NCBI GenBank assembly: GCA_005882215.1
Contig: VBCK01000116.1
Span: forward strand, 114,678-138,677
DNA from: Betaproteobacteria bacterium
GTDB taxonomy: Bacteria > Pseudomonadota > Gammaproteobacteria > Burkholderiales > Burkholderiaceae_F
DNA length: 24,000 bases
Direction: 5' to 3'
Part shown: positions 132-18,606 of the stretch, in pieces
Numbering within the stretch: position 1 is the stretch's first letter
Layout: each line of letters starts with the position of its first letter
Notes under the pieces: model-generated
Told to the model about the DNA's origin: nothing
Database searches by the model: none
The model's input: only the letters and a program-made list of their open reading frames with translations
Position numbers and translations under genes: made by a program

Positions 132-893
132 ATGCGCGCCGTCATTCTGGCAGCGGGCTGCGGCTCACGTCTTCAGCAGGCGCAGGATCGGCAATTGCCC
201 AAGTGTCTGTTGCGATTTGGTGGCCCGACCCTGCTCCAGCGGCATCTGCACTTGCTGAAGAGGGTGGGCGTCGATGAGATCGTGCTGGCGCTCGGCTTTC
301 GACACGAACTCGTCAGGGCCGAGCTCGACCGCCTGGTCTGGCGACCGAGGCCCGAAATTATGCTGAACGATCGCTATGAGCTCGGAAGTGTGCTGACGGT
401 CCATACCGTCGCAGAAGCCATGACGCGCGGCGGTGATATCTTGCTCATGGACGCGGATGTGTTATATGACGAGCGCATCCTGACCGCCCTGGTTGCGGGC
501 CGAGGGCCGGTTAACCGCCTGTTGATCGATCGCGATTTCGAGGCCGGTGACGAGCCCGTCAAAGTGTGCATGCGGGATGGCCTACCGATCGAAATGCGCA
601 AGCAAATTCCGCCCGAGCTGAAATATGACTTCATCGGCGAGTCGGTCGGGTTCTTTCGCTTCGATGAGGCCGGCGCGCGCCGGCTTGCGGTCCTGGCGGC
701 AGCTTATGTTGAAGGCGCGCGCACCTTTGCGCCGCACGAGGAAGCTCTGCGCGATCTGCTGCTGGAGCGCAGCCAGATCTTCGACGTCGCCGACGTCACA
801 GGAGCACCGTGGATCGAGATCGATTTTCCGGATGATGTAGCACGGGCGTCGCTTGACGTGCTGCCGCAACTTCAGCCGCTCCCACCAGCATGA
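132..893 (+). CDS. Stand-alone nucleotidyltransferase (LicC/PntC-like phospho-alcohol/phosphonate cytidylyltransferase family)
   Basis: ORF 51..893 is trimmed to the ATG at 132, so the protein starts [14 protein letters not shown]. That glycine-rich NTP-binding loop sits at the extreme N-terminus in this fold. The DADVLYD and IEIDFPDD segments are typical of the family. The stop overlaps the next start (ATGA at 890-893). The substrate cannot be read from sequence. Confidence 0.8.
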
Positions 894-3845: not shown

Positions 3846-4921
3846 TGCTCCTGCTCAATCCCGGGCCCGTCACGCTGACGGAACGTGTGCGCCGAAGTCT
3901 GACGCAACCGGATTTGTGTCATCGCGAAGGCGAGTTTTTTGACTTGCAGGATGAAGCCCGCGAGCGGCTTTTGGCGACTTATGCGCTTGACCCGGTCGAA
4001 TGGAGTGCCGTGTTGATGACGGCGTCCGGTACCGGAGCGGTTGAAAGCATGCTGGCGGCCCTGGTGCCTGAGTCGGGTCGTTTGCTGGTTGTCGAAAACG
4101 GCGTGTATGGCGAGCGGATCGCTGAAATTTGTGCGCAGTACCGGCTTGCGTACGCTCGAACGGCTGGCCCCTGGATGAAGCCGCTCGACCTCGATGCAAT
4201 CCGCTCGTACCTCGATGTGCCGAGCGGGAAGGCACGATTCACGCACATGGCCGTCGTGCACCATGAGACCACGACGGGAAGGCTCAATGACCTGAGGCCG
4301 CTGGGCCAGCTGTGCCGGGCGCACGGAATGAACTTGCTCGTGGACGGCGTCAGCAGTTTCGGCGCTGAAGCGCTCGATTTTACCGACAGCAGCCTGTTGG
4401 CAGTGGCGGCCACTGCGAACAAATGTTTGCATGGAGTGCCAGGCGCCTCGTTTGTCATCGTCCGGCGCAGTGCCCTTGCTCAGGCAACCCGGCGCACCTA
4501 TTACCTCGATCTTGGCCGCCTCTCGCGTCTGCAAGATCAGCGCGATACGCCATTCACGCCGGCAGTGCACGCATATTATGGTTTAGTCGAGGCCTTGCGC
4601 GAGTTCGCAGAGCAAGGTGGCCGCCTCGCGCGCTATCGACATTATGCGGCGCTGGCCGAGCAGGTACGCTCAGGGCTTGCAGCGTTAGGAGTCGAATCGG
4701 CACTCCCCGCTGGGCAGTGGTCGGTCGTTTTGCGCGCGTATCGCTTACCGCCCGGCCTCAGCTATGCCACGCTGCATGATGGCTTGAAGGCCGAAGGCTT
4801 CGTGATTTACGCGGGCCAGGGGGATTTGTCGCAGACATTGTTTCGTATCTCGACGATGGGCAATCTGACCTCGGCCGACATGGACCGGTTCCTGAAGTGC
4901 TTTAGCCGGCTGCTGCGGTGA
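3842..4921 (+). CDS. phnW: 2-aminoethylphosphonate:pyruvate aminotransferase (class V PLP aminotransferase)
   Basis: The N-terminus LLLNPGPVTLTERVRRSL and the PLP-lysine context ATANKCLHGVPG are typical of PhnW/AEP transaminases. The start is GTG 3842 or ATG 3845, and both overlap the ppd stop (GTGATG). It is the third step of the pepM-ppd-transaminase trio. Confidence 0.88.
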   Translation: MMLLLNPGPVTLTERVRRSLTQPDLCHREGEFFDLQDEARERLLATYALDPVEWSAVLMTASGTGAVESMLAALVPESGRLLVVENGVYGERIAEICAQYRLAYARTAGPWMKPLDLDAIRSYLDVPSGKARFTHMAVVHHETTTGRLNDLRPLGQLCRAHGMNLLVDGVSSFGAEALDFTDSSLLAVAATANKCLHGVPGASFVIVRRSALAQATRRTYYLDLGRLSRLQDQRDTPFTPAVHAYYGLVEALREFAEQGGRLARYRHYAALAEQVRSGLAALGVESALPAGQWSVVLRAYRLPPGLSYATLHDGLKAEGFVIYAGQGDLSQTLFRISTMGNLTSADMDRFLKCFSRLLR

Positions 4922-4988
4922 CGCGAGCCGTTCGCAACGGTGTCATCCGCTGCGGTCGGCGCGCACCATCACCGGAAGTGGCTGAGCG

Positions 4989-6332
4989 ATGCCCCGTGAT
5001 CTGACGCCTCGAGCCAAATGCCGCAGCGCGGCCGCTTTTTCGTTCGATCTATTCCGGGCTTATCTGGCCACGCTGGTGATGGCGGCCCCCTGCTGGTCGG
5101 AGCCCACGGGACCCGCCGCGGATGTGCACGGACCGGAGGCAAGCGGTGCGCAGCCTTCTGCGCCTTCCGCCGGCTTCTGGAAGTGGTTCGATCCGGAAAC
5201 CGCGCCGTTCCTTCCTGTTCCCGAGATCGCGACCAATCCAAACGGCGGCACGACGATTGGCATTCTTCCGGTCTGGCTGCGCACCGATGAACATCACGTC
5301 ATCCGTCGAATCATCGCGCCGGATTTTCTGCACAGTCCCTATTTCGGGTTTGGCTTCCATGCGCGCATGTATTCCTACCCCTCCCAGGACGAGCAGTGGT
5401 CCCTGCTGGCAGGGGCTAAGCAGCGAGTCGAACGCGAGTTCGACGCCGAGTACCAGAGCGGACGCTCGCGCAAGGAACGCTGGTCCTTTGCCGGCAGCCT
5501 GATTTACGACCGAGACGGGACGCCTCGCTTCTATGGAATCGGCAATGAATCGCCTCAAAGCGAGCAAACGAGCTTCACCGAGGAACAGAGCCTGGTGCAG
5601 GCGCAGATTGGTCTGAACCTCAGCAACGCCTGGCAGCTGCTTTACACGGGACGCGTGCGCATCGTCGATGTGCTACCGGGCACACTGCCGGGCATCCCTT
5701 CGCTCGAGAGTCGATTCGGAAGCATTGAGCTGGGCACCAGCCACGAAGCGCTCAATCGCCTGTCCATCGTCTATGACACCCGGAATGACTTGACGGTACC
5801 CAATCGAGGGACAAAATGGATTGCCTATGGGGGCGTTGCCAGTCGAGGGGGTGTGCTCAACGATTCTCTGTACAGTGAAGCGGGCATCGACGGCCGTGCC
5901 TTCTTGCCGATTGCACGCGAAACCATCCTGGTGGCACATCTGTCTTTGCGCTATTTGCCGACCGCGATTGACCCACCCTTTTGGGCGCTCAGCAGCCTCG
6001 GCGGAGCCCGAAGCGAAACAGGAGGCGAGCAGCCGTTGCGCGGTTTTGGCGCGGGCCGGTTTTACGATCGCAATTCCTTTTCCTCCAGCGTCGAGGTGCG
6101 ACAAAGGGCGTGGGAGTTCAACGCGGTCTCCACTCATGTCGAGTTGGAAGTGGCGCCATTCGTCGATGTCGGCCGGGTATTCGCGATGGGCGCGTCGCCC
6201 GTTGCACAGCTGCACAAGGTCGGCGGCCTGGCCTTCCGCGCAATCGCACGGCCTTTTGTCGTCGGCTACGTCGATATCGGCTTTGGCAGTGAGGGCCCGG
6301 CCGTGTTCAGCGGTATCTACTACCCGTTTTGA
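4989..6332 (+). CDS. Omp85/BamA-family (bacterial surface antigen) outer-membrane beta-barrel, no POTRA domains evident
   Basis: Barrel-family segments are present: YDTRNDLTVPNRG, LGGARSETGGEQPLRGFGAGRF and VAPFVDVGRVF. The C-terminus ends ...GIYYPF, an aromatic terminal residue typical of OMPs. The hydrophobic N-terminal region is not a textbook signal peptide, so the start is uncertain. Only ~70 aa precede the barrel-like region. Confidence 0.72.
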   Translation: MPRDLTPRAKCRSAAAFSFDLFRAYLATLVMAAPCWSEPTGPAADVHGPEASGAQPSAPSAGFWKWFDPETAPFLPVPEIATNPNGGTTIGILPVWLRTDEHHVIRRIIAPDFLHSPYFGFGFHARMYSYPSQDEQWSLLAGAKQRVEREFDAEYQSGRSRKERWSFAGSLIYDRDGTPRFYGIGNESPQSEQTSFTEEQSLVQAQIGLNLSNAWQLLYTGRVRIVDVLPGTLPGIPSLESRFGSIELGTSHEALNRLSIVYDTRNDLTVPNRGTKWIAYGGVASRGGVLNDSLYSEAGIDGRAFLPIARETILVAHLSLRYLPTAIDPPFWALSSLGGARSETGGEQPLRGFGAGRFYDRNSFSSSVEVRQRAWEFNAVSTHVELEVAPFVDVGRVFAMGASPVAQLHKVGGLAFRAIARPFVVGYVDIGFGSEGPAVFSGIYYPF

Positions 6333-6490: not shown

Positions 6491-7630
6491 ATGCCTGCAT
6501 TCGTCGCCCATGCCGGTGTGGCGCTGGCCGTCATCGCCGCTGCGTATTCGACCTGCGCCGCACTGCTGCTGTTCCGCTGTCGTGAGACCTTGACGGCTTC
6601 GGGCCCCGAGCGTCCAGCCGTGTCGATCCTGAAGCCACTGTGCGGCGCCGAGCCGCGCCTGCTGGATTGTCTGCGTTCGTTCGCACGCCAGGATTACCCG
6701 CACATGCAGATCGTGTTCGGCGTGCGCGAGGCGGCCGACCCGGCCGTCGAGGTCGTCCGGCAGCTGCAGCGCGAATTTCCCGCGCTGGATGCCGCGCTGG
6801 TCGTCGATCCCGGCGTGCACGGCGAGAACCTGAAGGCGAGCAACCTGATCAACATGCTGCCGCATGCGCGTCATTCGGTCCTGGTGATCTCGGACAGCGA
6901 TGTGCGGGTCGCGCCGGGTTACCTCGAGGCGACGGTCGCGGCGCTGGCGCCGGCGCAGGTCGGCGCGGTGACCTGCCTGTACCGGGGGCGCGCCGGAACC
7001 GGGCTGTGGTCGCGGGTGGCGACGCTGTTCATCAACGACTGGTACTTCCCGGCGGTGCTGATCTCACTGGCGCTAGGCGACCGCTCGTTCGCCTCGGGCG
7101 TCACGATCGCCCTGCGCCGTCAGACGCTGGAGGCGATCGGGGGCTTGCAGGTGACAGCGGACCACGTGGCGGACGACTGGCTGATCGGCGAGCGGGTAAG
7201 GCGGCTTGGACTGAAAACCGTTCTGAGCCCGGTCGTGGTCCAGACCGAAGTGGCGGACGAGGGTTTTCGCGCTCACGCGCATCGCGAGCTGCGCTGGATG
7301 CGAACGATCCGCGCGGTGGCCCCGCTCGGCTACGCATTCATGGGCTTTTCGATCTTTCTGCCGATCGCGCTGCTTGGCGTGCTGCTCGCCTGGCCTTCTC
7401 CGTGGGCCTTGGGGCTGGGCATTTTGGCCCTCGTAAACCGGGTAGGTATTCACTGGGTGCAGCGGCGCCGCGGCGCAGCGAGACTGGGGTACGATTGGAT
7501 CCTGATCCCGCCCCGCGACGGCCTGCTGGTGGCGGTGTGGGTCGCTGGATTCCTGGGCCGGGGCATCACTTGGCGGGGCCGGCGGTATCGTGTGCGCGGC
7601 GGCGGAGCCTTGAGGCTGCTCGGCGGCTGA
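6491..7630 (+). CDS. hpnI: Hopanoid-associated family-2 glycosyltransferase HpnI (ceramide-glucosyltransferase-like)
   Basis: An N-terminal TM helix is followed by VSILKPLCGAEPRLLDCLRSFARQDYPHMQIVFGV and ISDSDV (DxD-like). C-terminal TM segments follow. It lies immediately upstream of hpnJ/K/L homologues, which supports the specific call. Confidence 0.85.
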   Translation: MPAFVAHAGVALAVIAAAYSTCAALLLFRCRETLTASGPERPAVSILKPLCGAEPRLLDCLRSFARQDYPHMQIVFGVREAADPAVEVVRQLQREFPALDAALVVDPGVHGENLKASNLINMLPHARHSVLVISDSDVRVAPGYLEATVAALAPAQVGAVTCLYRGRAGTGLWSRVATLFINDWYFPAVLISLALGDRSFASGVTIALRRQTLEAIGGLQVTADHVADDWLIGERVRRLGLKTVLSPVVVQTEVADEGFRAHAHRELRWMRTIRAVAPLGYAFMGFSIFLPIALLGVLLAWPSPWALGLGILALVNRVGIHWVQRRRGAARLGYDWILIPPRDGLLVAVWVAGFLGRGITWRGRRYRVRGGGALRLLGG

Positions 7631-7681
7631 AGAAAAACCGATGGCCGGGCCATTCTGCCGGCCGCTGCTGGACTGAATCCG

Positions 7682-9109
7682 ATGGCACTGAAGACCGTAT
7701 TTCTGCACCCCCCCTCGTTCGACGGCTTCGACGGCGGCGCCGGGGCGCGCTATCAGGCCAAACGCGAGGTGCGCTCGTTCTGGTTTCCGACCTGGCTTGC
7801 CCAGCCGGCCGCGCTGGTGCCCGACAGCGTGCTGATCGACGCGCCAACCGACGGGCTGTCACTCGAGGACGTGATGCCGCGTGTGAAGGATGCGGACCTG
7901 GTGATCATGCACACCAGCTCGCCGTCGTTCGCCAGCGATGCGAGGGTCGCCGAGCAGCTGAAGGCCGCCAATCCGCAGATGATGATCGGCCTGGTGGGCG
8001 CCAAGGTGGCGGTCGATCCGGACGGCTCGCTCGAGACCGCGCCCGCCGTGGACTTCGTGTGTCGCGAGGAGTTCGACTACACCTGCCTGGAGGTGTCCGA
8101 GGGCAAGCCGCTCGGGCAGATCGCCGGACTGTGCTATCGCGGCGCCGACGGCAAGCTGATCCATACGCCGCCGCGTGCCCCGATCGAGGACATGGACGCG
8201 CTGCCGTGGGTGACGCCGGTGTACCGGCGCGATCTGAAAGTCGAGAACTACTTCATCGGCTACCTGAAGCATCCCTACGTGTCGTTCTACACCGGCCGCG
8301 GATGCAAGTCGCGTTGCACGTTCTGCCTGTGGCCGCAGACGGTCGGCGGCCATCGCTACCGGGTGCGCAGCCCCGCCAGCGTGATCGAGGAGGTCGCCTG
8401 GATCCAGAAAAACATGCCGCAGGTGCGCGAGATCTTTTTCGACGACGACACCTTCACCGACCTGCTTCCCCGCGCCGAGGAGATCGCGCGCGGCCTGGGC
8501 AAGCTGGGCGTGACCTGGTCGTGCAACGCCAAGGCCAATGTTCCTTACGACACGCTGAAAGTGATGCGCGACAACGGACTGCGGCTGCTGTTGGTCGGCT
8601 ACGAAACCGGGTCAGACCAGATCCTTCGCAACATCAAGAAGGGAATGCGCACGGATTTTGCGCGCCGCTTCACGCGCGATTGCCGCGAGCTGGGCATCAC
8701 GATTCACGGCACTTTCATCCTGGGTCTGCCGGGCGAGACGCGCGAGACGATCGAGCAGACGATCCGCTTCGCCAAGGAGATCAATCCGCACACGATCCAG
8801 GTCTCGCTGGCCGCCCCGTATCCGGGTACCGAGCTGTACCGGGATGCGGTCGCCAACGGGTGGCTCAGCAGCCCGGATCCTTCGCAACTGGTCGATTCGT
8901 CCGGCACGCAGTTGATCCCGCTGAGCTACCCGCATCTGAAGGCCGACGAGATCTACCACGCGCTGGAGCGCTTCTACAAGAGCTTCTATTTCCGGCCCGG
9001 CAAGATCATCGAACTGGTCGCCGAGATGTCCACCAGCTGGGAGATGACGCAACGCCGCCTGCGCGAGGGGGTGGAGTTCATGCGCTTCCTGCACCGCCGC
9101 GCCGTCTGA
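7682..9109 (+). CDS. hpnJ: Hopanoid-associated B12-binding radical SAM protein HpnJ
   Basis: The N-terminus is MALKTVFLHPPSFDGFDGGAGARYQAKREVRSFWFPTWLA. The radical-SAM cluster motif is CKSRCTFC (CX3CX2C). At 475 aa the length fits the family, and the hpnI/K/L context agrees. Confidence 0.88.
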   Translation: MALKTVFLHPPSFDGFDGGAGARYQAKREVRSFWFPTWLAQPAALVPDSVLIDAPTDGLSLEDVMPRVKDADLVIMHTSSPSFASDARVAEQLKAANPQMMIGLVGAKVAVDPDGSLETAPAVDFVCREEFDYTCLEVSEGKPLGQIAGLCYRGADGKLIHTPPRAPIEDMDALPWVTPVYRRDLKVENYFIGYLKHPYVSFYTGRGCKSRCTFCLWPQTVGGHRYRVRSPASVIEEVAWIQKNMPQVREIFFDDDTFTDLLPRAEEIARGLGKLGVTWSCNAKANVPYDTLKVMRDNGLRLLLVGYETGSDQILRNIKKGMRTDFARRFTRDCRELGITIHGTFILGLPGETRETIEQTIRFAKEINPHTIQVSLAAPYPGTELYRDAVANGWLSSPDPSQLVDSSGTQLIPLSYPHLKADEIYHALERFYKSFYFRPGKIIELVAEMSTSWEMTQRRLREGVEFMRFLHRRAV

Positions 9110-9185
9110 CTCTGACTGGCGTATAAGTGCGCGGGGCTCGATCGCCCCTCGCCCGCGCAGCGGGACAGGGGGCGGAGGCGGGGTT

Positions 9186-9238
9186 GCGCGAAGCACTGCT
9201 TCGCGCCGCCGGAGCCGGCGCGCCTTGCAAGGCGCGCC
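9186..9238. repeat. Two adjacent perfect GC-rich palindromes/hairpins in the hpnJ-hpnK spacer
   Basis: 9186-9206 is GCGCGAAGCA-C-TGCTTCGCGC (10-nt arms). 9217-9238 is GGCGCGCCTTGCAAGGCGCGCC, a 22-nt perfect palindrome. I verified both by hand reverse-complementing. A weaker GGGGC-N6-GCCCC hairpin lies at 9133-9148. No T-tract follows any of them. Confidence 0.7.
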
Positions 9239-9254
9239 GTGGGCGGGGGTAAAG

Positions 9255-10151
9255 GTGGCGGCCACGCGGCACCTGATCATCACCGCCGACGATTTCGGCC
9301 TGGACCTGGCGATCAATGAGGCGGTCGAGCAGGCCTACACCGGAGGCGTGCTGACGGCTGCCAGCTTGATGGTGGGACAGCCGGCCGCTGGCGACGCGGT
9401 CGAGCGCGCGCGACGCCTTCCGGGTTTGCGAATCGGTCTGCACGTGACGCTGACCGGCGCGCGCCCGCTGCTGGCGCCGCAGCAGCTTCCCGACCTGGTC
9501 GATGCTGCCGGCCGCTTGCCCGCGGACCTGGCCGGACTCGGCTGGCGGTTGGCGGCAAGTCCGCGGGCGCGCCACCAGGCCGAGCAGGAGATCGGTGCGC
9601 AATTTCAGGCGTTCGCCAACGCCGGGCTGGCGCTCGATCACGTCAACGCGCATCAGCACTACCACCTGCATCCGTTCGTGCTGGACCGGATCCTGAGCAT
9701 CGGCCGCGGTTTCGGCATGCGCGCGGTGCGCGTGCCATTCGAACCGCTGTGGCTGGCGCGCGCGGTCCCGGCCAGCGCCTCCCGTGCGGGGCGGGTGTCG
9801 GCGCTCGGCTGGGCGCTGGGCACGGGCTGGATGCGGCGCCGGCTGCTTCGCGCGGGGCTGGCCTGCAACGATGTGCTGTTCGGGCTGCGCTGCAGCGGGC
9901 GTCTGGATGAGGCGACGCTGTGCGACGCGCTGGAACGGCTGCGGCCGGGAATTGCCGAGGTGTACTTGCACCCCGCGACACGCTGCGGTCCGCGCGAACA
10001 GTCGGCCGGCGTCGGGCCGCACGCGAGCGAGGAACTCGAGGCCTTGATGAGTCCGCGGGTGCGGCAACGGCTGCAGGCGCTGAACGCCTCGGCGGGCGGT
10101 TTCTCGGACATTCCGGGCGAAGCGCCCGCGCTGCGCGGAGCGGCGGCGTGA
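9255..10151 (+). CDS. hpnK: YdjC-family carbohydrate deacetylase, hopanoid-associated HpnK
   Basis: HLIITADDFGLDLAINEAVEQAYTGGVLTAASLMV is the YdjC N-terminal signature. I prefer the GTG at 9255 (preceded by GGGGG at 9244-9248) over the track's TTG at 9225. The TTG lies inside a 22-bp perfect palindrome. The start is therefore uncertain by ~30 nt. The stop overlaps the hpnL start (GTGA at 10148-10151). Confidence 0.8.
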   Translation: MAATRHLIITADDFGLDLAINEAVEQAYTGGVLTAASLMVGQPAAGDAVERARRLPGLRIGLHVTLTGARPLLAPQQLPDLVDAAGRLPADLAGLGWRLAASPRARHQAEQEIGAQFQAFANAGLALDHVNAHQHYHLHPFVLDRILSIGRGFGMRAVRVPFEPLWLARAVPASASRAGRVSALGWALGTGWMRRRLLRAGLACNDVLFGLRCSGRLDEATLCDALERLRPGIAEVYLHPATRCGPREQSAGVGPHASEELEALMSPRVRQRLQALNASAGGFSDIPGEAPALRGAAA

Positions 10152-11149
10152 AACGCATCGCCTATGTGCTCGGCCTGGCCGGCCTGGCCGCGGCCATCGC
10201 GCTGGTTGCGCGCGCTGGCTGGCATGCGGTACTGGATGCCCTTGCGGCCGCTGGCTTGCCGTTGCTGTGGCTGGTGCCGCTGCGCGTGATCCCGATCGCG
10301 TTGGATGCGATGGGGTGGCGCGTGCTGCTCGCGCCGCGCGACGTGCACCATCGCGCCCGCTGGCCGGTGCTGGTGGCAACGGCGATGGTGCGCGAGGCGG
10401 TCAATCGCCTGTTGCCGGTCGCCGGGGTCGGCGGCGAGCTGGTCGGGATCCGGATCCTGGTTCGCCGCGGGCTGGAACCGGCGCCGGTGACGTCGAGCGT
10501 GATCGCCGAGGTGGTGCTGACATTGCTGAGCCTGGTGCTGTTCGCCGCGCTTGGCCTCGCGCTGCTGGGGGTGTCGACCGGGGGAGCGGGCTCGCTCGAC
10601 TCGATCATCATCAGCGTTTTACTGGCCTTGCCGCTTCCGCTGGCTGGCCTGTGGCTGATCAGCGAAGGACGCCTCGTCGCCTGGCTGCGGCGCCTTGCTT
10701 ACCTGGTGACCGGCAGCACCGGCCTGGCACCGCCGTGGCTGCAGTCGATGCCGGCGTTCGAGACAGAATTGTCGGCGCTGGCGCGGCGCCGGGGCCGGCT
10801 GGTGCTGACCATGTTGTTCCAGTTGGCCGCAATGACGGCGGGCGCCTCGGAAGTGTGGCTTGCGCTAAGACTGCTCGGCCACCCGGTCGGTTTCGAGACC
10901 GCGCTGATCATCGAAAGCGTCGTGCTGTTCGTGCGCAACCTGGCCTTCGCGGTTCCGGCCGCGCTTGGCGCACAGGAGGCCGGCATCGTGCTGATCTGCG
11001 CGGCCGTCGGTCTGGATCAGGAGGTGGCGATCGGCCTGGCCCTGGCCAAGCGGATGCGCGAAGTGCTGTTCGGCCTGCCGGCGCTGCTGGGCTGGAATCT
11101 GTGGGAAAGCATGCAAGCTTCGCCGGCGGTCGCCGGGCGTTCGAAGTAA
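10148..11149 (+). CDS. hpnL: Hopanoid-associated polytopic membrane protein HpnL (UPF0104 / lysyl-PG-synthase TM-region, flippase-like family)
   Basis: ORF 9920..11149 is trimmed to the GTG at 10148 (VKRIAYVLGLAGLAAAIALVARAGW...). The protein has multiple hydrophobic helices, and the LPVAGVGGELVGIRIL segment is typical of the family. It is translationally coupled to hpnK. Confidence 0.78.
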   Translation: MKRIAYVLGLAGLAAAIALVARAGWHAVLDALAAAGLPLLWLVPLRVIPIALDAMGWRVLLAPRDVHHRARWPVLVATAMVREAVNRLLPVAGVGGELVGIRILVRRGLEPAPVTSSVIAEVVLTLLSLVLFAALGLALLGVSTGGAGSLDSIIISVLLALPLPLAGLWLISEGRLVAWLRRLAYLVTGSTGLAPPWLQSMPAFETELSALARRRGRLVLTMLFQLAAMTAGASEVWLALRLLGHPVGFETALIIESVVLFVRNLAFAVPAALGAQEAGIVLICAAVGLDQEVAIGLALAKRMREVLFGLPALLGWNLWESMQASPAVAGRSK

Positions 11150-11165
11150 ACCCTCGGGATCCGGC

Positions 11166-11933
11166 TCAAGGCCGAACAGCTGGGGATTCCAGCGCCATGC
11201 CCCGCGCGCGCCACATCAGGAACAGTTCGAGGTTCACGAGTTCCGGTGCTCCGTAGTCGTAGGGCTCGGAGCGCACGCCGCTGATGCAGGCGCGCAGCCT
11301 GCGCTGCAGCGAGCCCAGCCCCTGCCACTCAAGCCGATAGAGCGGATATCCGGTCGGATGGGCTTGGGGAATCAGGCTGCCCGCCAGGTGCTTGCCCCAG
11401 TTGTCGTCGTGGCACTGGTTGCAGGCGAGATTGAGCTGGCCGCGGCGGCGCTGGAATTGCTCGCGGCCGGCGGCCAGAAACGGCTCGCTGCGTGGGTCAG
11501 CGCCGATTTCGATCCGCAGGCCGCGCGATTGCTGCGCGACGTAAGCGGTGATCGCCAGCAGTTGCCGGCTTTCGAACGCGAATGCAGAGGCGCGCTGTCG
11601 AATCGTGCGACACAGGTTGATGCGCTGCTCCAGGTCGAGGGGGCGTCCGGCCGCGACCTCGAACGCGGGGTAACGGGCGGCGACCCCCTTCATGCTGACG
11701 CCGGCGTCACCGTGGCAGTCCGCGCAAGCGCGCGCACCCGGGTTGGGTCGCTCGTTCCAAAGGCCCTTGCCCTCCATCACCCAGAGCATCGCCGGATTGG
11801 CGGCGTCATCGTCCTGGATAGCCCGCGTCTCCGGCCTCATCAATTCGTAGCCCGAATGGCGCTCGGACGGCGGGATCTCGCCGGCGATGGCGGCAAGGGC
11901 AAAGGCGAATACAGAGAAGCCGGCGAGCCGCAT
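11166..11933 (-). CDS. soxA: Dihaem c-type cytochrome SoxA
   Basis: ORF 11166..11990 is trimmed to the ATG at 11933 (MRLAGFSVFAFALAAIAG signal peptide), which overlaps the soxZ stop (TAATG). There are two CxxCH motifs (CADCH, CNQCH) and the conserved distal Cys context RLRACISGVRSEPY. The C-terminus LELFLMWRARGMALESPAVRP is SoxA-like. Confidence 0.88.
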   Translation of the reverse strand: MRLAGFSVFAFALAAIAGEIPPSERHSGYELMRPETRAIQDDDAANPAMLWVMEGKGLWNERPNPGARACADCHGDAGVSMKGVAARYPAFEVAAGRPLDLEQRINLCRTIRQRASAFAFESRQLLAITAYVAQQSRGLRIEIGADPRSEPFLAAGREQFQRRRGQLNLACNQCHDDNWGKHLAGSLIPQAHPTGYPLYRLEWQGLGSLQRRLRACISGVRSEPYDYGAPELVNLELFLMWRARGMALESPAVRP

Positions 11934-12253
11934 TATTCGACTCTGATCGCCACCGACTCGGTCGCCGAAAAGCCGTTGTCCCCCGTCCATGTGAAAACGA
12001 GGGTGCCGCTTTCGGTCGCGATCGTATTGAAGGCGAAGTACGGGTTGGCCGCTATGGCCGGGTGGATCTCGGCGCGGAACACTTCCTCGCCGTTATAGGA
12101 GCAGACGAACAGGCGCAGGATATCGCGGGGAATGACCGCACCCAGCGAGGTACGGCGATAGCCGGTTTCCATCACGTGCGAGATCAGCGTCTTGATCTGA
12201 ATGATCTCGCCGCGCCTGGCGCTGGGGGGAACGTTGATCAGAGCGCTGGCCAT
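11933..12253 (-). CDS. soxZ: SoxZ-type sulfur-carrier complex subunit
   Basis: The 106-aa protein reads RGEIIQIKTLISHVMETGYRRTSLGAVIPRDILRLFVCSYNGEEVFRAEIHPAIAANPYFAF, matching the SoxZ signature. Its start overlaps the stop of the upstream SoxY-like gene (TAATG at 12251-12255). Confidence 0.88.
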   Translation of the reverse strand: MASALINVPPSARRGEIIQIKTLISHVMETGYRRTSLGAVIPRDILRLFVCSYNGEEVFRAEIHPAIAANPYFAFNTIATESGTLVFTWTGDNGFSATESVAIRVE

Positions 12254-12705
12254 TACGACGACGGCTCCGTGCAGGCTGCGAGGGTAACCACGGATTCCGC
12301 CGATCCGGACCAGAATGAGCCGTCGCTCATCTGGCAGACGGCGACGACCGTCTGCGAGTCGGCGAGCCGGATGCGGGTCGACACGCTCGCACGGCCGGCG
12401 CGCGGGCCAAGGTGCAATGACGCCACATACGGCTGCGGATTCTTTTCCACGAACACGTGGACCGCCTTCACGTGGTCAGCCACCGTCATCGGGCTGTCCA
12501 CGCGGATAGTCAGGGGGACCGAATTCCCGTTCTCCACCAGCGGCGGCAGGTCGAGTGTCACCCGGCCAGCGGTGACGCGGGCCGTGCCCGTGAGCTGCAG
12601 GATCGCCTCCTTCACCTCGGCGGGAGTCGCGCGAACTGCTGCCGCTCCGAGTCCAAATGCCGCGCCGATCGCGCCGCCAACGGCCAGAAAGTCGCGCCGC
12701 TTCAC
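12253..12705 (-). CDS. SoxY-related carrier protein with a non-canonical C-terminal arm (ends ...VVTLAACTEPSS instead of ...GGCGG)
   Basis: A twin-arginine signal is present (MKRRDFLAVGGAIGAAFGLGAAAVRA). The SoxY core segments are LDLPPLVENGNSVPLTIRV and STRIRLADSQTVVAVCQMSDGSFW. I hand-translated the C-terminus from nt 12279->12253: GCA GCC TGC ACG GAG CCG TCG TCG TAA = AACTEPSS*. The GTG start at 12705 abuts the soxX stop. Confidence 0.85.
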   Translation of the reverse strand: MKRRDFLAVGGAIGAAFGLGAAAVRATPAEVKEAILQLTGTARVTAGRVTLDLPPLVENGNSVPLTIRVDSPMTVADHVKAVHVFVEKNPQPYVASLHLGPRAGRASVSTRIRLADSQTVVAVCQMSDGSFWSGSAESVVTLAACTEPSS

Positions 12706-13116
12706 TCAGTCACGCAGGGTCGCCAGAAACGCGACCACGTCCTCGATCTGTTGCGGGGTGAGCAGCGTCCGCCCTCGGAACGCCGGAGCAACGCGCCAGA
12801 GTCCTTCGGACCTGCCATAGGCCGGCATGATCGTGGCCGGGTTCAGGCGCATCGGATCGATGATGCGCAGGCGAAGCTGTGCCTCGGTCCAGCGCGTGCC
12901 CGCACCCCGCAGATCCGGTGCGAGGTCGCCTTGTGACGGCTCCTCCGGAAACGGGCCGCTATGGCAGAGCAGGCACAACCCGGTCTGGCGATCGGCGACG
13001 ATCGCACGCCCGCGAGCAGGGTCGCCCCTTTGCCCGGTGAGCGGATTGGGCAGGGACTCCTGCGCGACGTTGCAGGCCGAGAAGCCCGCCAGCAGCACCG
13101 CGAGAACGGCCTTCAC
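12706..13116 (-). CDS. soxX: Monohaem c-type cytochrome SoxX
   Basis: There is a signal peptide (MKAVLAVLLAGFSAC..., possibly a weak lipobox) and a single CLLCH haem motif. The segments GDLAPDLRG, TIMPAYG and the C-terminal LLTPQQIEDVVAFLATLRD match the SoxX pattern. The GTG start overlaps the stop of the upstream flavoprotein gene (GTGA at 13113-13116). Confidence 0.82.
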   Translation of the reverse strand: MKAVLAVLLAGFSACNVAQESLPNPLTGQRGDPARGRAIVADRQTGLCLLCHSGPFPEEPSQGDLAPDLRGAGTRWTEAQLRLRIIDPMRLNPATIMPAYGRSEGLWRVAPAFRGRTLLTPQQIEDVVAFLATLRD

Positions 13117-14372
13117 TCGAAGACCTCCGCGGTCAGCGTGCGGAAGGCTGCCTCGGCATTGCTGGCTTCGAGAGCGCGCGCGGCGCCCGGCGAGTCGGCA
13201 GCACCCGCAGCGCCCGATTCGGCCACCTCTGCAAACTCCCCGCCCTCCGGACGATAGATCCCCGCCATCGAAATGCCGTAATCCGGCGCGACCAGGCTGT
13301 AGCAGGCGTTGATCAGCCTGGGTGAGGCGGGCTCACGACCGGCCAGCAGCGCCGCCACCGCCAACGCGCAGCTCTTGGCCTCGGTGTTGGCGCCGAAGGC
13401 CGATTTCGGCATCGCGCCGGTGATCGCCGCATCGCCGATGACATGGATGTTCGGCTGCAGCCTCGATTCGAAGGTCACCGGGTCGATCGGGCACCAGCCG
13501 CTGCGGTCGGCCACACCGGCGGCCCCGGCGATCCGGCCCGCCTTCTGCGGCGCGATCACGTTGGCGACGGCGGCGCGGTACCGATCGAAATCGGTGACCA
13601 GCGTGCGAGTCGTCGGCTCGACCGAGACGACCCCGCCGCCGCGCGAAAGAGGCACCCACTCGATCAGGCCGGGGTAGAGCTCGCTCCAGGCGCTGAGGAA
13701 GAGCTGCTGCTTCGGGAACTTGTCCTTCGCATCCAGCACGATCACTTTCGAGCGTGGCTTGTGCGCCTTCAAGTAATGGGCGATCAGGCTGGCCCGCTCG
13801 TAGGGCCCCGGCGGGCAGCGATACGGACCGGCCGGCGCCGAGATGACCACCAGTGCGCCGTCTTGCATGGCCTGCAGTTGTCGGCGCAGCAGCAGGGTTT
13901 GCTCGCCCGCCTGCCAAGCGTGCGGCATCTGCTGGGCGGCCGCCTCGTCGTAGCCCGGCAACGCGTCCCAACGGATGTCGATGCCGGGCGCGAGAACCAG
14001 CCGGTCGTAGCCCAGGCGGGTGCCGTCCGACAGCGCGACGCGGCGGGCGCGGGGGTCGATCGCGGTTGCGGCGAGCGGCGCAAGCGCCACCCCGTCGGCT
14101 CGCAAGGCGGCGTAGGTAAACTGCTGCCGGTCCATCTCGCGCAGACCGGCGATCACCGCATTGCTCATCGGACAGGCGTGAAAGACCGCGTTTTGCTCGA
14201 CCAGCGTCACGGCGATCCGCGGGTCGGCTTTCTTTAGAGCTCGGGCGCAACTCGCGCCTGCGAAGCCGCCCCCGACGACCGTCACCCGCCGGGCCGATGC
14301 CTGCCCGTGCAAGACCTGTGCCGGAAGCGCCGCGGTTGCGGCCGCGGCGCCCAGGAAGACCCTGCGCTCCAC
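13113..14372 (-). CDS. Flavocytochrome-c sulfide dehydrogenase-type flavoprotein (FccB/SoxF-like), Tat-exported
   Basis: The Tat motif is MERRVFLGAAAATAAL, and the FAD dinucleotide fold is VTVVGGGFAGAS. Three cysteine contexts of FCSD flavoproteins are retained: FHACPMSN (FAD-linking Cys position), GPYRCPPGPYERAS and INACYSLV (redox disulfide positions). The GTG start at 14372 directly abuts the stop of the Mo-subunit gene (TGAGTG). Confidence 0.85.
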   Translation of the reverse strand: MERRVFLGAAAATAALPAQVLHGQASARRVTVVGGGFAGASCARALKKADPRIAVTLVEQNAVFHACPMSNAVIAGLREMDRQQFTYAALRADGVALAPLAATAIDPRARRVALSDGTRLGYDRLVLAPGIDIRWDALPGYDEAAAQQMPHAWQAGEQTLLLRRQLQAMQDGALVVISAPAGPYRCPPGPYERASLIAHYLKAHKPRSKVIVLDAKDKFPKQQLFLSAWSELYPGLIEWVPLSRGGGVVSVEPTTRTLVTDFDRYRAAVANVIAPQKAGRIAGAAGVADRSGWCPIDPVTFESRLQPNIHVIGDAAITGAMPKSAFGANTEAKSCALAVAALLAGREPASPRLINACYSLVAPDYGISMAGIYRPEGGEFAEVAESGAAGAADSPGAARALEASNAEAAFRTLTAEVFE

Positions 14373-16595
14373 TCAGACCAGTTCGAAGCCGCTATTTTTC
14401 AGCGGGAACGAGCGGATGCGCTTTCCCGTCGCCCGGCATAGCGCGTTCAGGACGGCCGGCGCCGCCACGGCGATCGTGGGCTCCCCGACGCCGCCCCAGA
14501 AGCCGCCAGAGGGCATGATGATCGATTCGACCTTCGGCATCTGACTGATCCGCATCGAGTCGTAGGTGTTGAAGTTTTCCTGCTCGATGCGCCCATCCTT
14601 GACGGTGCACTGCTCCATGAACAGAGCCGACAACCCATAGACGAACGAGCCGGCAACCTGGCGATCGATCTGCGCCGGGTTAACGGCATAGCCGGGGTCG
14701 GTGCCACCGACGATCCGGTGGATCTTGACCTTGCTGCCACCGGTCACTGAGACCTCCGCGCAGGCCGCCACGTAGCTGCCGAACGCTCTGAAGTGGGCGA
14801 TTCCGCGGTGCACTCCGGCGGCTGCCGGCTTGCCCCAGCCTCCCTTTTCGGCCACGGCATTCAGGAGCGCAAGCGACTTCGGATGCGCTGCCATCAACTT
14901 GCGCCGGAACTCCAGCGCATCCTGCCCGGCCGCTTCCGCCAACTCATCCATGAAGCATTCCAGGAAGATGGCGTTCTGGTTGACGTTGACGCCGCGCCAG
15001 AATCCGGGCGGCACATGCGGATTTCGCATGGCATGGTCGATCAACAGGTTCGGGATCGTGTATTCCAGCGAATGCTCGCCGGTGGGCCAGTAGCCTTGAA
15101 ACGTCAGCGGGTCCTTGCCCTTGTCCAGCCCCTCCGGGCGGGCCGAGGCGAGGATCGACTGCCCGGAGAGGCGGATCCGAAGGCCGGTCAGGTTGCCGCC
15201 GGCATCGAGCGCCCCGATCAGCCGAGCCTGCATCACCGGATGGTACTTGCCGTGCAGCATGTCCTCCTCGCGGGACCACAGCAGCTTCACCGGTGTTCCG
15301 GGCATCAGCTTGGCGATCGCGACCGCCTGGCGCACATAGTCGGTGAACCCGCGTCGGCCGAAGCCACCGCCCAAGAAGGTCTTGTGGACGTCGCATTGAG
15401 CCACCGGCAGCCCCGAGGCCTCGGCGGTCGCCGCCAGCGCGGCCTCGCCGTTCTGGGTCGGGCACCAGACCTCGCAACGATCGCTCGTGTAGAGCGCGGT
15501 CGCGTTCATCGGCTCCATCGTGGCGTGGTTCTGGTAGGGGTAGCTGTAGACCGCCTCGACTTTCTTCGCCGCCGACTCGATGGCGGCCTTCACGTCCCCG
15601 GCCTCGTTGTGCACGAACGCCTGTTCCGCATCCAGGCCGGCAGCCAGCGTCTGCGCGATCGTGGCGCTCGAGACGGTGGCGTTCTCCCCACCATCCCATT
15701 CGATCGCGACCGCATCGAGCGCCGTCTTGGCATGCCACCAGGTGTCGGCGACGACGGCGATCGCGCTATCGCCGACGCGCACGACTCTTTTCACGCCCGG
15801 CATGGCCTCGGATTTGGTCGCGTCATAGGTCTTCACCTTGCCGCCGAACACCGGGCAGTCCTTGATGGCGGCGTTCAGCATCCCGGGCAGGTGCAGGTCG
15901 GCGCCGTAGACCAGCTTGCCGGTTACCTTGTCCAGCGTGTCCAGCCGCTTCAGCGGCTTGCCGACGATTTGCCATTGCGCCGGGTCCTTGAGCGGCACGT
16001 CCTTCGGCGCTTCGAGCTTTGCCGCCGCATCCGCCACCTGGCCGTAGGTCGTGCGTCGCTTGGACGGGGCGTGGGTAATGACGCCCTTTGCCACGCTGCA
16101 CTCGGCCACCGGCACTTTCCAATCGTCGGCCGCGGCCTGAACCAGCATCATGCGTGCGGCAGCGCCGCCCTTCCGTACGTACTCCTGCGAAGCGCGGATG
16201 CCGCGGCTGCCGGCGGTAAAGTAATCGCCCCACACGCGCTTGCGCGCCAGGTTCTCCCCGGGAGTCGGAAATTCGGTCGTGACCCTGGCCCAGTCGCACT
16301 CGAGCTCCTCGGCGACGAGCTGGGCCAGGCCGGTCATCGTTCCCTGCCCCATTTCCGATCGCGCGATCCGGATCACGACTGTGTCGTCGGGGCGAATTAC
16401 GACCCACGCGTTGACTTCAGCGCCGGCCTCCACGGCGAAAGACTGCTTCGGTCCGCCGAAAGGGATCCTGAATCCGAGCGCGAGCCCGCCCCCGACCGCG
16501 GCGGTGCGGACCAGGAACGAGCGCCTATCCATCTTCGCAGCGTCGATCATCATCGCAAGTCCTTCCTCGGCCTCATTCTCACGCTCATCTGTCAT
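14373..16595 (-). CDS. Xanthine-dehydrogenase-family molybdopterin-binding subunit (IorB / aldehyde oxidoreductase large-subunit type), Tat-exported
   Basis: ORF 14373..16976 is trimmed to the ATG at 16595 (MTDERENE...[20 protein letters not shown], a Tat signal). That start overlaps the [2Fe-2S] subunit stop (ATGA). The 5' 381 nt of the track ORF is an out-of-frame read through the upstream gene. The remaining ~740 aa include [19 protein letters not shown] and GGGFGRRG, typical of Mo-hydroxylase large subunits. An alternative start is [13 protein letters not shown], about 14 codons downstream. Confidence 0.85.
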
Positions 16596-17041
16596 GACCT
16601 GGCGGCAGCGTGGATGGCCTCGCGCACCTGTTGATAGGTGCCGCAGCGGCAGATGTTGGTAATGGCGGCGTCGATGTCGGCGTCGGTGGGATTGGGCTTT
16701 TCCTTCAGCAGCGCCGCGACGGCCATGATCATGCCGGACTGGCAGTAGCCGCACTGGGGGACGTCGTGCTCGAGCCAGGCCTGTTGTACACGGCTCAGCT
16801 TGCCCTCGACTGCCAGCCCCTCGATGGTGGTGATCTTCTTGCCCTGCGCTGCCTCGACGGGCATCACGCAGGAACGCACCGCCCTGCCGTCGATGTGCAC
16901 CGTGCAGGCCCCGCATTGCGCGATCCCGCAGCCGTACTTGGTCCCAGTGAGGCCGACCTGCTCCCGGATCGCCCACAGCAGCGGGGTCCCCGGGTCCACA
17001 TCGACGTCGACCGTCTTGCCATTGATCGTAAGGCGTGCCAT
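16592..17041 (-). CDS. (2Fe-2S)-binding small subunit of a Mo-hydroxylase (IorA type)
   Basis: The 149-aa protein carries both cluster motifs: [11 protein letters not shown] (plant-ferredoxin-like) and [10 protein letters not shown]...CRCGTY. It is the first gene of the minus-strand operon and is preceded by a 158-nt divergent intergenic region. Confidence 0.9.
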
Positions 17042-17199
17042 CTGTGTCTCCCGGTCATCCGGCGTCGGGTTCCAAATATCCTACGCTCACACGGCTGTTC
17101 ACACCCCGGTTCCGGCTCAGGCGATCACGTGTCGCGTTCGGGGTCTATATTGAGGGCCTTCCGAAGCGTTGTGCCGCAGCCCGGGAGCGCATTCGACGG
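17042..17199. promoter_or_regulatory. Divergent intergenic region expected to hold promoters for the Mo/Sox-like operon (-) and the beta-eliminating lyase gene (+)
   Basis: This is the only non-coding DNA upstream of both divergent start codons. It contains a direct TCACAC...TCACAC repeat, a CACGTG-centred imperfect palindrome (GATCACGTGTC) and a TATATT hexamer. None of these is verified as functional. Confidence 0.35.

Positions 17200-18606
<1,407 letters not shown>

Follow-up and report, generated by a model that had tools for sequence, protein, structure and literature searches.

The window analysed here, a stretch of 24 kb, contains on its minus strand a seven-gene operon that encodes, in this order, a [2Fe-2S] subunit, a molybdenum (Mo) subunit, an FCSD flavoprotein, SoxX, a SoxY homologue (called here SoxY′), SoxZ and SoxA. 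The gene boundaries across the operon all overlap or abut and the genes are translationally coupled: the stop of soxY′ overlaps the start of soxZ in the sequence TAATG, the stop of soxZ overlaps the start of soxA in the same manner, the GTG start of soxY′ directly follows the soxX stop, and the stop of the Mo subunit gene abuts the start of the FCSD gene. A scan of positions 10900-17400 returned no promoter-like site and a single terminator-like site, where 3.3 were expected by chance.

The [2Fe-2S] small subunit (16592-17041, minus strand, 149 aa) is recognised by the Pfam families Fer2_2 (E 5.9e-29) and Fer2. As it carries no signal peptide, it is presumably exported together with the Tat-targeted large subunit. 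The latter (14373-16553, minus strand, 726 aa; Tat signal MDRRSFLV) is a predicted molybdopterin-binding protein of the xanthine-oxidase family, IorB/AldH type. It contains the Pfam domains MoCoBD_1 and MoCoBD_2, and it is the combination of these domains with a partner bearing two [2Fe-2S] domains that places the 14373-16553/16592-17041 pair in this family. Its sequence includes GGGFGRRG and GVGEP, which may correspond to the cofactor-binding loop and the catalytic-glutamate motif (G-x-G-E), respectively. The best solved relative, aligned over the full length, is 8gy3_C, described as the large subunit of aldehyde dehydrogenase (E 5e-69). None of the NCBIfam equivalogs compared (XdhA, PaoC, CoxL, 4-HBCR, glyceraldehyde dehydrogenase and others) was passed, the best score being 176 bits for cut-offs of 780-1180. 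Like the aldehyde dehydrogenase of acetic acid bacteria (8gy3) and the IorAB-type Mo hydroxylases, the enzyme has a separate subunit with two [2Fe-2S] clusters, no FAD subunit and Tat export, and its electrons would be expected to reach c-type cytochromes. Unlike 8gy3, it has no dedicated trihaem cytochrome subunit and is encoded beside SoxXA, SoxY′Z and FCSD. The conserved cysteines of the Mo subunit, examined as possible module-specific relays of sulfur to the arm, are found in the tandem paralogues too and so do not discriminate.

The next gene encodes an FCSD/SoxF-type flavoprotein (13113-14372, minus strand, 419 aa) with a Tat signal and matches to Pfam FCSD_central (E 4.5e-46) and FCSD-flav_bind (E 1.1e-17). 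It has in common with FccAB and SoxF both FCSD domains (central and flavin-binding) and the three characteristic cysteines, namely the FAD-linking Cys and the redox-active pair, found here in FHAC66PMS, YRC186PPGPYER and NAC357YS. It differs from FccAB in that no FccA gene adjoins it, a feature also of SoxF-type flavoproteins; an FccA-like cytochrome gene beside FCSD was absent from the window and from its closest relatives (L001 and L081). A gene for a small monohaem cytochrome c (CSGCH) directly precedes FCSD in 37 of 89 related loci, the arrangement known from FccA-FccB. At one locus (L082) the Mo subunit and FCSD seemed to be fused within a single 1248-aa open reading frame. This candidate was rejected as an assembly indel artefact: translation showed that the C-terminal region of the Mo subunit and the cytochrome are both read there in the wrong frame, across GC-rich DNA free of stops, the cytochrome gene of L006 ends at a normal stop, and the fused appearance is seen in only 1 of 69 loci.

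The three Sox proteins surrounding SoxY′ all pass their NCBIfam models. SoxX (12706-13116, minus strand, 136 aa) is a monohaem cytochrome c with the haem motif CLLCH, which scored 79.3 bits with TIGR04485 (cut-off 61). SoxZ (11933-12253, minus strand, 106 aa) scored 82.2 bits with TIGR04490 SoxZ_true (cut-off 76) and matches Pfam SoxZ (E 7e-26). SoxA (11166-11933, minus strand, 255 aa from the ATG at 11933) starts with the Sec signal MRLAGFSVFAFALAAIAG and scored 214 bits with TIGR04484 (cut-off 110); it contains two CxxCH haem motifs and a distal Cys in RLRACISG, and two CxxCH together with R[LF]RxC are present in each of the 15 commonest SoxA patterns across the related loci. Judging from these motifs, SoxA (both haem motifs and the active-site Cys), FCSD (three Cys) and the Mo subunit look competent.

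SoxY′ itself (12253-12705, minus strand, 150 aa) is composed of a Tat signal, a SoxY Ig-like core and the C-terminal arm VTLAAC(145)TEPSS. The translated open reading frame ends in SAESVVTLAACTEPSS followed by the stop, and direct translation of 12253-12279 gives Ala-Ala-Cys-Thr-Glu-Pro-Ser-Ser-stop, with Ala143 at 12279-12277, Ala144 at 12276-12274, Cys145 at 12273-12271 and the TAA stop at 12255-12253. The AACTEPSS terminus announced by the sequence-only reading, which had examined the letters and their open reading frames, is thereby confirmed. The SoxY core that it had also recognised was recovered by Pfam (SoxY, E 3.7e-32), by NCBIfam and by an AF2 model (pLDDT 87 overall and >95 in the core), which Foldseek superimposed on 2oxg_Y (TM 0.88, rmsd 1.9 Å, E 9e-11). 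Its Tat assignment likewise stands: the N-terminus MKRRDFLAVGG contains a twin-arginine motif, RR occupies this position in 70 of 83 homologues, and the Pfam TAT_signal match is below threshold (16.4 vs 22.7 bits). The last ~10 residues were modelled with a pLDDT of about 60, a value consistent with a flexible arm.

SoxY′ scored 202.8 bits with NCBIfam TIGR04487 (cut-off 172, E 2e-60), its residues 2-147 covering positions 1-146 of the 146 in the profile, whereas it remained under the cut-off of the canonical SoxY model TIGR04488 (108.6 vs 125 bits). Since it passes the first model and fails the second, SoxY′ is, on the evidence of its sequence, a real, intact and ordinary member of the large, curated and publicly annotated family TIGR04487. 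The label for SoxY relatives with an AAC(I/T)E arm that was brought up in the sequence-only reading does exist: "SoxY-related AACIE arm protein" is the PGAP name given to orthologues in Neorhizobium galegae, Methylobacterium sp. NMS14P and MAGs. Compared to TIGR04487, also named SoxY_para_1, SoxY′ has the same AAC-x-E arm and an adjoining SoxZ, with nothing essential different; the Thr instead of Ile after the Cys and the PSS tail are both within the family range. TIGR04487 is a sequence label to which no function is attached. In agreement with the earlier statement that no biochemical characterisation was known, the searchable literature yielded no published characterisation of the family, no paper pairing AACIE with SoxY and none tying iorA/iorB to soxY.

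With canonical SoxY (TIGR04488; Paracoccus pantotrophus, 2ox5/2oxg; Thermus SoxB-SoxYZ, 4uwq), SoxY′ shares the Ig-like fold, the Tat signal and the presence of SoxZ, SoxX and SoxA encoded alongside. It is 36% identical to the Paracoccus protein, whose carrier Cys is aligned in register with Cys145 (VTIGGC vs VTLAAC), both falling in one alignment column where the last strand ends. By contrast, the arm reads A-A-C-T-E-x3 where the canonical protein has G-G-C-G(G), and the SoxY′ loci differ from canonical sox clusters in having no SoxB nearby and a Mo enzyme of the xanthine-oxidase family instead.

This arm turned out to be widespread. Tabulation of the C-terminal motifs, one of the checks proposed with the sequence-only reading, showed that AAC[LTVA]E (in a few cases GAC or ASC), followed by 0-5 variable residues, ends 120 of the 120 best homologues and that GGC ends none of them; the exact end AACTEPSS is found in 2 clusters among these 120. 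Among representatives at 50% clustering, [ASGT]AC-x-[ED] is present in about 96 of the 122 that bear a tail. The consensus of the arm is (V/I)T(L/I)-A-A-C-(T/L/V/I)-(E/D), and the AAC-arm family amounts to 60 clusters (50% identity) with E <1e-30, a few of which have a GGC-type arm or are truncated. Glu or Asp is conserved two residues after the Cys while the remainder of the tail varies in length and sequence, so that the five-residue tail which had been singled out is reduced to one conserved acidic position, PSS not being conserved. The canonical relatives end in GGCGG, GGCG, GGCGA, GGCGK, GGCS, GGCST or GGCRT; GGC alone is constant among them, and the "invariant GGCGG" of the sequence-only reading was too strong. 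Nor is the arm an oddity of this window, since it defines a very large named family. That reading had also considered that the AAC end might prove to be a common and already characterised equivalent of GGCGG: common it is, a characterised equivalent it is not. The conservation of the arm suggests that it is under selection.

Nothing was found in favour of the view that the AAC end arises from a frameshift, a sequencing error or the decay of a paralogue, and we reject it as practically impossible. The identical 150-aa protein is encoded on 13 independent metagenome contigs from different assemblies, which, together with the retention of the arm in all the best homologues, rules against a frameshift. 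A shift restoring GGCGG, the event that would have undone the original observation, was looked for and not found, as GGCGG is not encodable in either of the other frames over 12253-12290. Decay is further opposed by the maintenance of the AAC motif in hundreds of clusters across phyla, by the translational coupling of soxY′ to its neighbours and by the high confidence with which the core is modelled.

The survey of genes neighbouring AAC-arm proteins, also proposed earlier, revealed the recurrence of the whole module. Among the 69 genome loci with enough upstream DNA, the FeS subunit is present in 67, the Mo subunit in 67, FCSD in 66 and SoxX in 67; at the 75 loci testable for the downstream genes, SoxZ was found in 75 and SoxA in 71. 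The Mo and FeS subunits are the best conserved, with median identities of 70.5% and 77%, respectively, compared to 61-65% for FCSD and the Sox proteins. Hosts of the module include Burkholderiaceae, Rokubacteria/Methylomirabilota, Bradyrhizobium, Methylobacterium, Microvirga, Vineibacter and Neorhizobium. In Roseomonas marmotae the genes are arranged in the order FeS, Mo, SoxX, SoxY (ending GACVETG), SoxZ, SoxA, cytochrome c, FCSD, and in two betaproteobacterial MAGs the module is reduced to FeS, Mo, SoxY′ and SoxZ, with neither SoxXA nor FCSD. The linkage between Mo/FeS and SoxY′Z thus withstands rearrangement and gene loss. Two loci (L053 and L079) have no Mo enzyme within 10 kb, and the distant AAC-type representatives P0137 and P0126 show SoxX, SoxY′, SoxZ and SoxA on short contigs. 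No further gene family was common to the loci, the recurrences in the flanks being generic (ABC, MFS, TctC, isochorismatase) and including no sulfur enzymes.

SoxB was not detected in the 24-kb window or within 10 kb of about 90 AAC loci, truncated contigs included, although the search recovered its positive control (L097), and no SoxCD-like family was common to the window and the homologous loci. By contrast, the closest relative with a GGC arm whose contig spans a full cluster (P0238, ending GGCGG), which is the single locus available for this comparison, carries soxXYZA-soxB-dsbD-trx and no Mo enzyme. The different partner enzymes that the sequence-only reading anticipated, from a putative change in the flexibility and charge of the arm, are therefore found in the gene neighbourhoods, the Mo/FeS enzyme accompanying the AAC arm and SoxB the GGC arm.

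From the sequences and their context, we propose that SoxY′ is a functional TIGR04487 carrier belonging to a separate periplasmic module in which the Mo enzyme, rather than SoxB and SoxCD, processes the cargo; in our estimation this is as apt to be right as wrong. SoxY′Z would act as a periplasmic carrier holding its cargo on Cys145 of the flexible C-terminal arm, outside the canonical SoxB/SoxCD thiosulfate pathway and as part of a self-contained seven-gene operon. The arm cysteine would receive reduced sulfur in an oxidative step carried out by the dedicated SoxXA, the FCSD-type sulfide dehydrogenase or both. The Tat-exported Mo/FeS enzyme, taking the place of SoxCD and SoxB, would admit the bulkier and acidic AAC-x-E arm and oxidise the tethered group with oxygen from water, and c-type cytochromes would carry the electrons away. 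It should be noted that, to our knowledge, the characterised enzymes of the xanthine-oxidase family all hydroxylate carbon or oxidise CO, the oxidation of protein-bound sulfur being unprecedented there. The module also contains no hydrolase equivalent to SoxB, which leaves the release of the product unexplained.

The first of these two points could be answered if the cargo contained carbon. Bound to the arm Cys there might be a thiol adduct or C-S compound, such as thiocyanate or methanethiol in a mixed disulfide made by SoxXA, or else an aldehyde in the form of a hemithioacetal. Hydroxylation of the carbon would then fall to the Mo enzyme, while FCSD would handle the leftover sulfide or sulfane. 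Such a cargo suits a family known only to attack carbon and a Mo subunit whose closest solved relative, 8gy3_C, is a periplasmic aldehyde dehydrogenase. It also agrees with the minimal FeS-Mo-SoxY′-SoxZ modules, which imply that the core pair can do without the sulfur-specific loaders. A parallel is provided by TIGR04557, the quinoprotein dehydrogenase-associated SoxYZ-like carrier, which also descends from SoxY and SoxZ and whose genomic partner is a periplasmic dehydrogenase of the alcohol type instead of SoxB; it differs, however, in being a fused SoxY-SoxZ with a PQQ dehydrogenase partner, and SoxY′ matches it weakly (68 bits vs 140, E 6e-19). Yet SoxXA and FCSD, whose known chemistry is that of inorganic sulfur, belong to the module at 66-67 of 69 loci, the conserved neighbours include no cyanase, formaldehyde-handling or organosulfur gene, and no data point to any particular substrate. 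We consider a carbon-containing cargo unlikely. A cargo of either kind would be processed by the Mo enzyme; the operon might instead be a redundant or alternative entry to the ordinary Sox pathway, in which its own SoxXA loads thiosulfate onto SoxY′Z and SoxB and SoxCD encoded elsewhere in the genome finish the reaction, AAC-x-E being equivalent to GGCGG and the Mo enzyme an unrelated dehydrogenase that shares the cytochromes. SoxX, SoxZ and SoxA do pass the NCBIfam cut-offs for true Sox equivalogs, and the order FCSD-X-Y-Z-A resembles that of sox clusters in green sulfur bacteria. Against this, TIGR04487 was built as an NCBIfam exception model precisely so that such proteins would not be named SoxY, and SoxY′ fails TIGR04488. 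SoxB, which adjoins the genes of the GGC-armed relative, is missing around the AAC loci, and the Mo/FeS genes are the best conserved and most tightly linked, even in the reduced modules. The arm channel in the SoxB-SoxYZ complex (4uwq) is narrow, and by analogy the fit of two alanines in it seems doubtful. A soxY2 mutant is said to have been described by Masuda et al. in 2010. Bradyrhizobium, whose genomes include the AAC module, also has a complete sox locus elsewhere, as a shared pathway would need; but in B. diazoefficiens thiosulfate oxidation requires only soxY1 from that locus and does not depend on soxY2 (PMC5748708), which may be the AAC-type gene. Taken together, these observations make an ordinary Sox role for SoxY′ distinctly improbable.

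The tight linkage between the Mo enzyme and SoxY′Z, the tightest in the module, could also mean that the carrier serves the enzyme rather than being served by it. Xanthine-oxidase-family enzymes depend on a terminal sulfido ligand that they normally acquire in the cytoplasm and can lose; SoxY′Z might renew this cyanolysable Mo=S ligand by delivering persulfide sulfur that FCSD or SoxXA has generated. However, other periplasmic enzymes of the family work with no such system, five accessory genes would be a costly means of repair, and nothing in the data specifically favours this role. A sulfur-donor function of SoxY′Z is thus, in our opinion, very hard to credit.

In textbook accounts of bacterial thiosulfate oxidation the carrier is SoxYZ, whose paralogues tend to be dismissed as noise. 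A recent survey of SoxY removed all sequences without "GGC" as poor quality (PMC11237559), and another retained only clusters containing soxB, which is included in the minimal functional Sox set (PMC13500833). Returning to the proposal that the Mo enzyme processes the cargo, we tentatively extend it, as a possibility that we rate below even odds, to the AAC-x-E arm being the tether that presents the cargo to a Mo enzyme of the xanthine-oxidase family. This would be the first protein-tethered substrate of that family, within a widespread route by which soil bacteria (Bradyrhizobium, Methylobacterium, Burkholderiaceae and Rokubacteria) would oxidise sulfur or C-S compounds in the periplasm without SoxB and SoxCD, and surveys would have missed it because they discarded SoxY proteins lacking GGC or clusters lacking soxB.

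The AAC-arm family is common in soil and plant-associated bacteria and already named, with no function assigned. What is new here is its gene context, a fixed module in which a Mo hydroxylase, a sulfide dehydrogenase and a dedicated SoxXA come together and SoxB is missing. An odd C-terminus thereby becomes a specific hypothesis, open to knock-out experiments in Bradyrhizobium, Methylobacterium and Neorhizobium galegae, all of them cultured and genetically tractable. If the Mo enzyme does not act on the carrier, the finding is that of a correctly annotated paralogue; if it does act on a carrier-bound group, both the Sox paradigm and the scope of the xanthine-oxidase family would widen.

The soxY* gene, encoding the SoxY paralogue with an AAC arm, lies at 12253-12705 on the minus strand, and translation gives a 150-residue product ending in ...SAESVVTLAACTEPSS, with TAA at 12255-12253 as stop codon and Cys145 encoded by nt 12273-12271. 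The ORF begins with a GTG immediately after the stop codon of the preceding cytochrome gene (soxX), and the TAA overlaps the start codon of the gene downstream (TAATG). GGCGG cannot be read in either of the other frames over the final 40 nt of the ORF, and gene calls on 13 independent contigs, drawn from different metagenome assemblies, gave an identical protein. The unusual end is therefore not a sequencing error, nor does a frameshift near the arm hide a canonical one. The product matched Pfam SoxY (E 3.7e-32), confirming the AAC-type end on a SoxY homologue, and its N-terminus carries a twin-arginine motif (MKRRDFLAVGG...), with RR at the corresponding position in 70 of 83 homologues, as expected from the Tat signal proposed in the sequence-only reading. 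In an AlphaFold2 model built from a 57-sequence alignment, pLDDT exceeded 95 across the beta-sandwich and was about 60 over the last ten residues. The closest structural match was Paracoccus pantotrophus SoxY (2oxg_Y; E 9e-11, TM 0.88, rmsd 1.9 Å), and the alignment placed Cys145 in register with the Paracoccus carrier cysteine (VTLAAC versus VTIGGC). These results establish the SoxY core noted earlier and demonstrate that SoxY* presents a conserved flexible Cys arm on the SoxY fold.

To the sequence-only reading the AAC arm was a departure from an invariant GGCGG, and a labelled family of SoxY-related proteins with such an arm was suspected. That label is real: SoxY* matched NCBIfam TIGR04487, "SoxY-related AACIE arm protein", end to end with 202.8 bits (curated cut-off 172), and did not reach the canonical model TIGR04488 ("SoxY_true_GGCGG"; 108.6 bits, cut-off 125). 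In a search of 5.8 billion proteins, the C-termini of all 120 best matches read AAC[LTVA]E, with GAC or ASC in rare cases, plus a variable tail of 0-5 residues; several of these proteins were already labelled as AACIE arm proteins by their sources. When representatives clustered at 50% identity were searched exhaustively, 2201 clusters matched at E ≤1e-3 and 60 at E ≤1e-30. A tail Cys was present in 122 of the best 150 representatives; about 96 of these 122 read [A/S/G/T]-A-C-x-[E/D], and a minority of 18 were GGC-type with varied ends (GGCGG, GGCG, GGCGA, GGCGK, GGCS, GGCST, GGCRT). The tabulation of C-terminal motifs thus indicates three conserved features: the Cys is preceded by Ala and followed by Thr or a hydrophobic residue, and position Cys+2 is acidic. 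The PSS tail of the window's SoxY* is not conserved. One representative (P0201) has a hybrid GGCLD arm, and five others (P0147, P0165, P0180, P0216 and P0250) end in AACVV(L), AACVI(Q) or AACIVM, without the acidic Cys+2. SoxY* is a typical further member of a known, named, functionally uncharacterised family, and AAC arms of this kind are common and were already known. The earlier interpretation is thus supported in part, including the family label and the idea of different partners.

In the window, soxY* comes fifth in a tightly coupled set of seven minus-strand genes, which encode a [2Fe-2S] small subunit (FeS, 16592-17041), a Tat-exported molybdopterin-binding large subunit of the xanthine-oxidase family (Mo, 14373-16553), an FCSD/SoxF-type flavoprotein (13113-14372), SoxX (12706-13116), SoxY*, SoxZ (11933-12253) and a dihaem SoxA with its active-site Cys (11166-11933). 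Gene borders abut or overlap by 1-4 nt, except that 38 nt separate the FeS and Mo genes. Among solved structures, the Mo subunit is closest to the large subunit of a periplasmic aldehyde dehydrogenase (8gy3, E 5e-69), and no NCBIfam equivalog passed its cut-off for this protein. SoxZ, SoxX and SoxA are thus dedicated partners of SoxY* whose catalytic motifs are intact, and its FCSD partner has all three hallmark cysteines. Neither soxB nor soxCD was found in the 24-kb window. The SoxX signal peptide ends in ...LLAGFSAC-NVAQ, which is loosely lipobox-like, and SoxX might be lipid-anchored.

The flanks are unrelated to the operon. On one side, a complete hopanoid side-chain cluster (6491-11149, plus strand; hpnI TIGR03472, hpnJ TIGR03471 with 796 bits, hpnK TIGR03473, hpnL TIGR03476) converges on soxA and also flanks the module in the close relatives L081 and L002; beyond it, a phosphonate-type cluster (51-6332, plus strand) encodes a nucleotidyltransferase, a PEP mutase fused to a MobA-like NTP-transferase domain, a TPP-dependent decarboxylase-like protein and a class-V aminotransferase, followed by an Omp85-family protein. 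On the other side, a divergent tryptophanase/tyrosine phenol-lyase-family gene (17035-18606, plus strand) matched the subfamily model NF009709 (674 bits) and did not reach the TnaA and TPL equivalog cut-offs; an N-terminal extension of about 60 residues in the listed ORF is probably not translated.

Relatives of the module were sought in one genome per species, and the best 80 of more than 277 loci were examined. Their hosts included Burkholderiaceae MAGs, of which those at 83% and 77% identity are probable relatives of the source organism, Rokubacteria/Methylomirabilota, many Bradyrhizobium, Methylobacterium, Microvirga, Vineibacter and others. For 69 loci the sequence extended 5.2 kb or more upstream; of these, 67 had the FeS subunit, 67 the Mo subunit, 67 SoxX and 66 FCSD. 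Downstream, SoxZ was present at all 75 loci counted and SoxA at 71. Conservation is highest for the FeS and Mo subunits, whose median identities to the window copies are 77% and 70.5%, compared with 61-65% for FCSD and the Sox proteins. All-against-all clustering of flank ORFs revealed no further widely shared family, the rest being shadow ORFs or generic transporters, and no AAC locus gave a tblastn match to a bona fide SoxB query at a distance of up to 10 kb. In the cultured strains Methylobacterium sp. NMS14P and Neorhizobium galegae, PGAP annotates the series (2Fe-2S)-binding protein, molybdopterin cofactor-binding domain-containing protein, cytochrome C, NAD(P)/FAD-dependent oxidoreductase, SoxX, SoxY-related AACIE arm protein, SoxZ and SoxA. 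These results demonstrate that the SoxY* carrier and a Tat-exported Mo/FeS enzyme are inherited together and that SoxB is absent nearby.

At 37 of 89 related loci (for example L083, 8059-8337; L085, 8005-8295; L094, 6850-7143), the Mo-subunit and FCSD genes are separated by a gene for a small monohaem cytochrome c (about 93 aa, CSGCH, signal peptide), which together with FCSD forms an FccA/FccB-like pair. The cytochrome gene is missing in the window (14372/14373) and in its closest relatives, L001 and L081, in which the Mo-subunit stop abuts the FCSD start. An apparent Mo subunit-cytochrome-FCSD fusion (L082, 5841-9587, one 1248-aa product) was rejected as an assembly indel artefact because its translation shows frameshifted, stop-free GC-rich sequence. 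Five loci (L021, L031, L047, L063 and L078) carry one or two extra tandem FeS/Mo pairs directly upstream of the module's own pair, about 50% identical to the window's Mo subunit. On Roseomonas marmotae plasmid p1318-3 (L095, 4793-10942) the gene content is unchanged but rearranged to FeS-Mo-SoxX-SoxY-SoxZ-SoxA-cytochrome c-FCSD, and the arm is GACVETG; PGAP calls this carrier plain "SoxY", probably a misannotation at the family boundary. Two betaproteobacterial MAGs (L072, 7265-10788; L069, 3-1281) hold only FeS-Mo-SoxY*-SoxZ, with an AACLEEL... arm and then TctC/TauD genes, and no SoxXA or FCSD nearby. One locus has FeS-Mo-X-Y*-Z-A without FCSD, and the Mo enzyme is missing within 10 kb at two. 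From these reduced and rearranged loci, the closest coupling is that of the carrier with the molybdenum enzyme. The GGCGG-armed relative P0238 lies in soxX-Y-Z-A-soxB-dsbD-thioredoxin without a Mo enzyme, and a second GGC-type relative adjoins only a DsrE-like gene. The suggestion of different partner enzymes is thus borne out, arm type tracking partner set in the cases examined, which cover only two GGC-type contexts. A further SoxY variant, ending in ...VAVATNGCL and common on Sinorhizobium megaplasmids, is followed on S. meliloti pSymA (L096, 7905-10346) by SoxZ, a c-type cytochrome and an FCSD-like flavoprotein, without SoxXA or a Mo enzyme.

We give an even chance to the general proposal of a self-contained periplasmic module that uses SoxY*Z as its carrier, with the cargo bound to Cys145. 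Reduced sulfur would be loaded oxidatively on SoxY* by SoxXA and/or FCSD, the tethered group would be acted on by the Mo enzyme in place of SoxCD/SoxB, and electrons would exit via c-type cytochromes. In favour of this sulfur-carrier scheme, the acidic Cys+2 may, to judge from the arm residues, stand in for the free C-terminal carboxylate two residues past the Cys in GGCGG arms. Its weaknesses are that it gives no account of product release and that, to our knowledge, no xanthine-oxidase-family enzyme oxidises sulfur. The main alternative, which we consider unlikely, is a carbon-containing cargo that the Mo enzyme hydroxylates at carbon in its customary way.

That the module instead feeds a canonical SoxB/SoxCD pathway encoded elsewhere in the genome is improbable, in view of the "exception" status of TIGR04487, the failure of SoxY* against TIGR04488 and the universal absence of SoxB within 10 kb of AAC loci. 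The AAC module is present in Bradyrhizobium genomes, and according to one report on B. diazoefficiens (PMC5748708), thiosulfate oxidation depends on just soxY1 from the complete sox locus and does not require soxY2, which may be the AAC gene; this would also argue against such a supply role.

Our literature searches found no paper pairing "AACIE" with SoxY, no discussion of non-GGC SoxY arms and no paper linking iorAB-type genes with soxY. A 2024 study of SoxY family expansion discarded sequences without the "GGC" motif as poor quality (PMC11237559), and a 2026 evolutionary study kept only soxB-containing clusters and set paralogues aside (PMC13500833). The AACIE arm family therefore seems annotated but unstudied. 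Its conserved tie to two enzymes, a sulfide dehydrogenase and a molybdenum hydroxylase, in the absence of SoxB provides a specific hypothesis that is testable in cultured bacteria.
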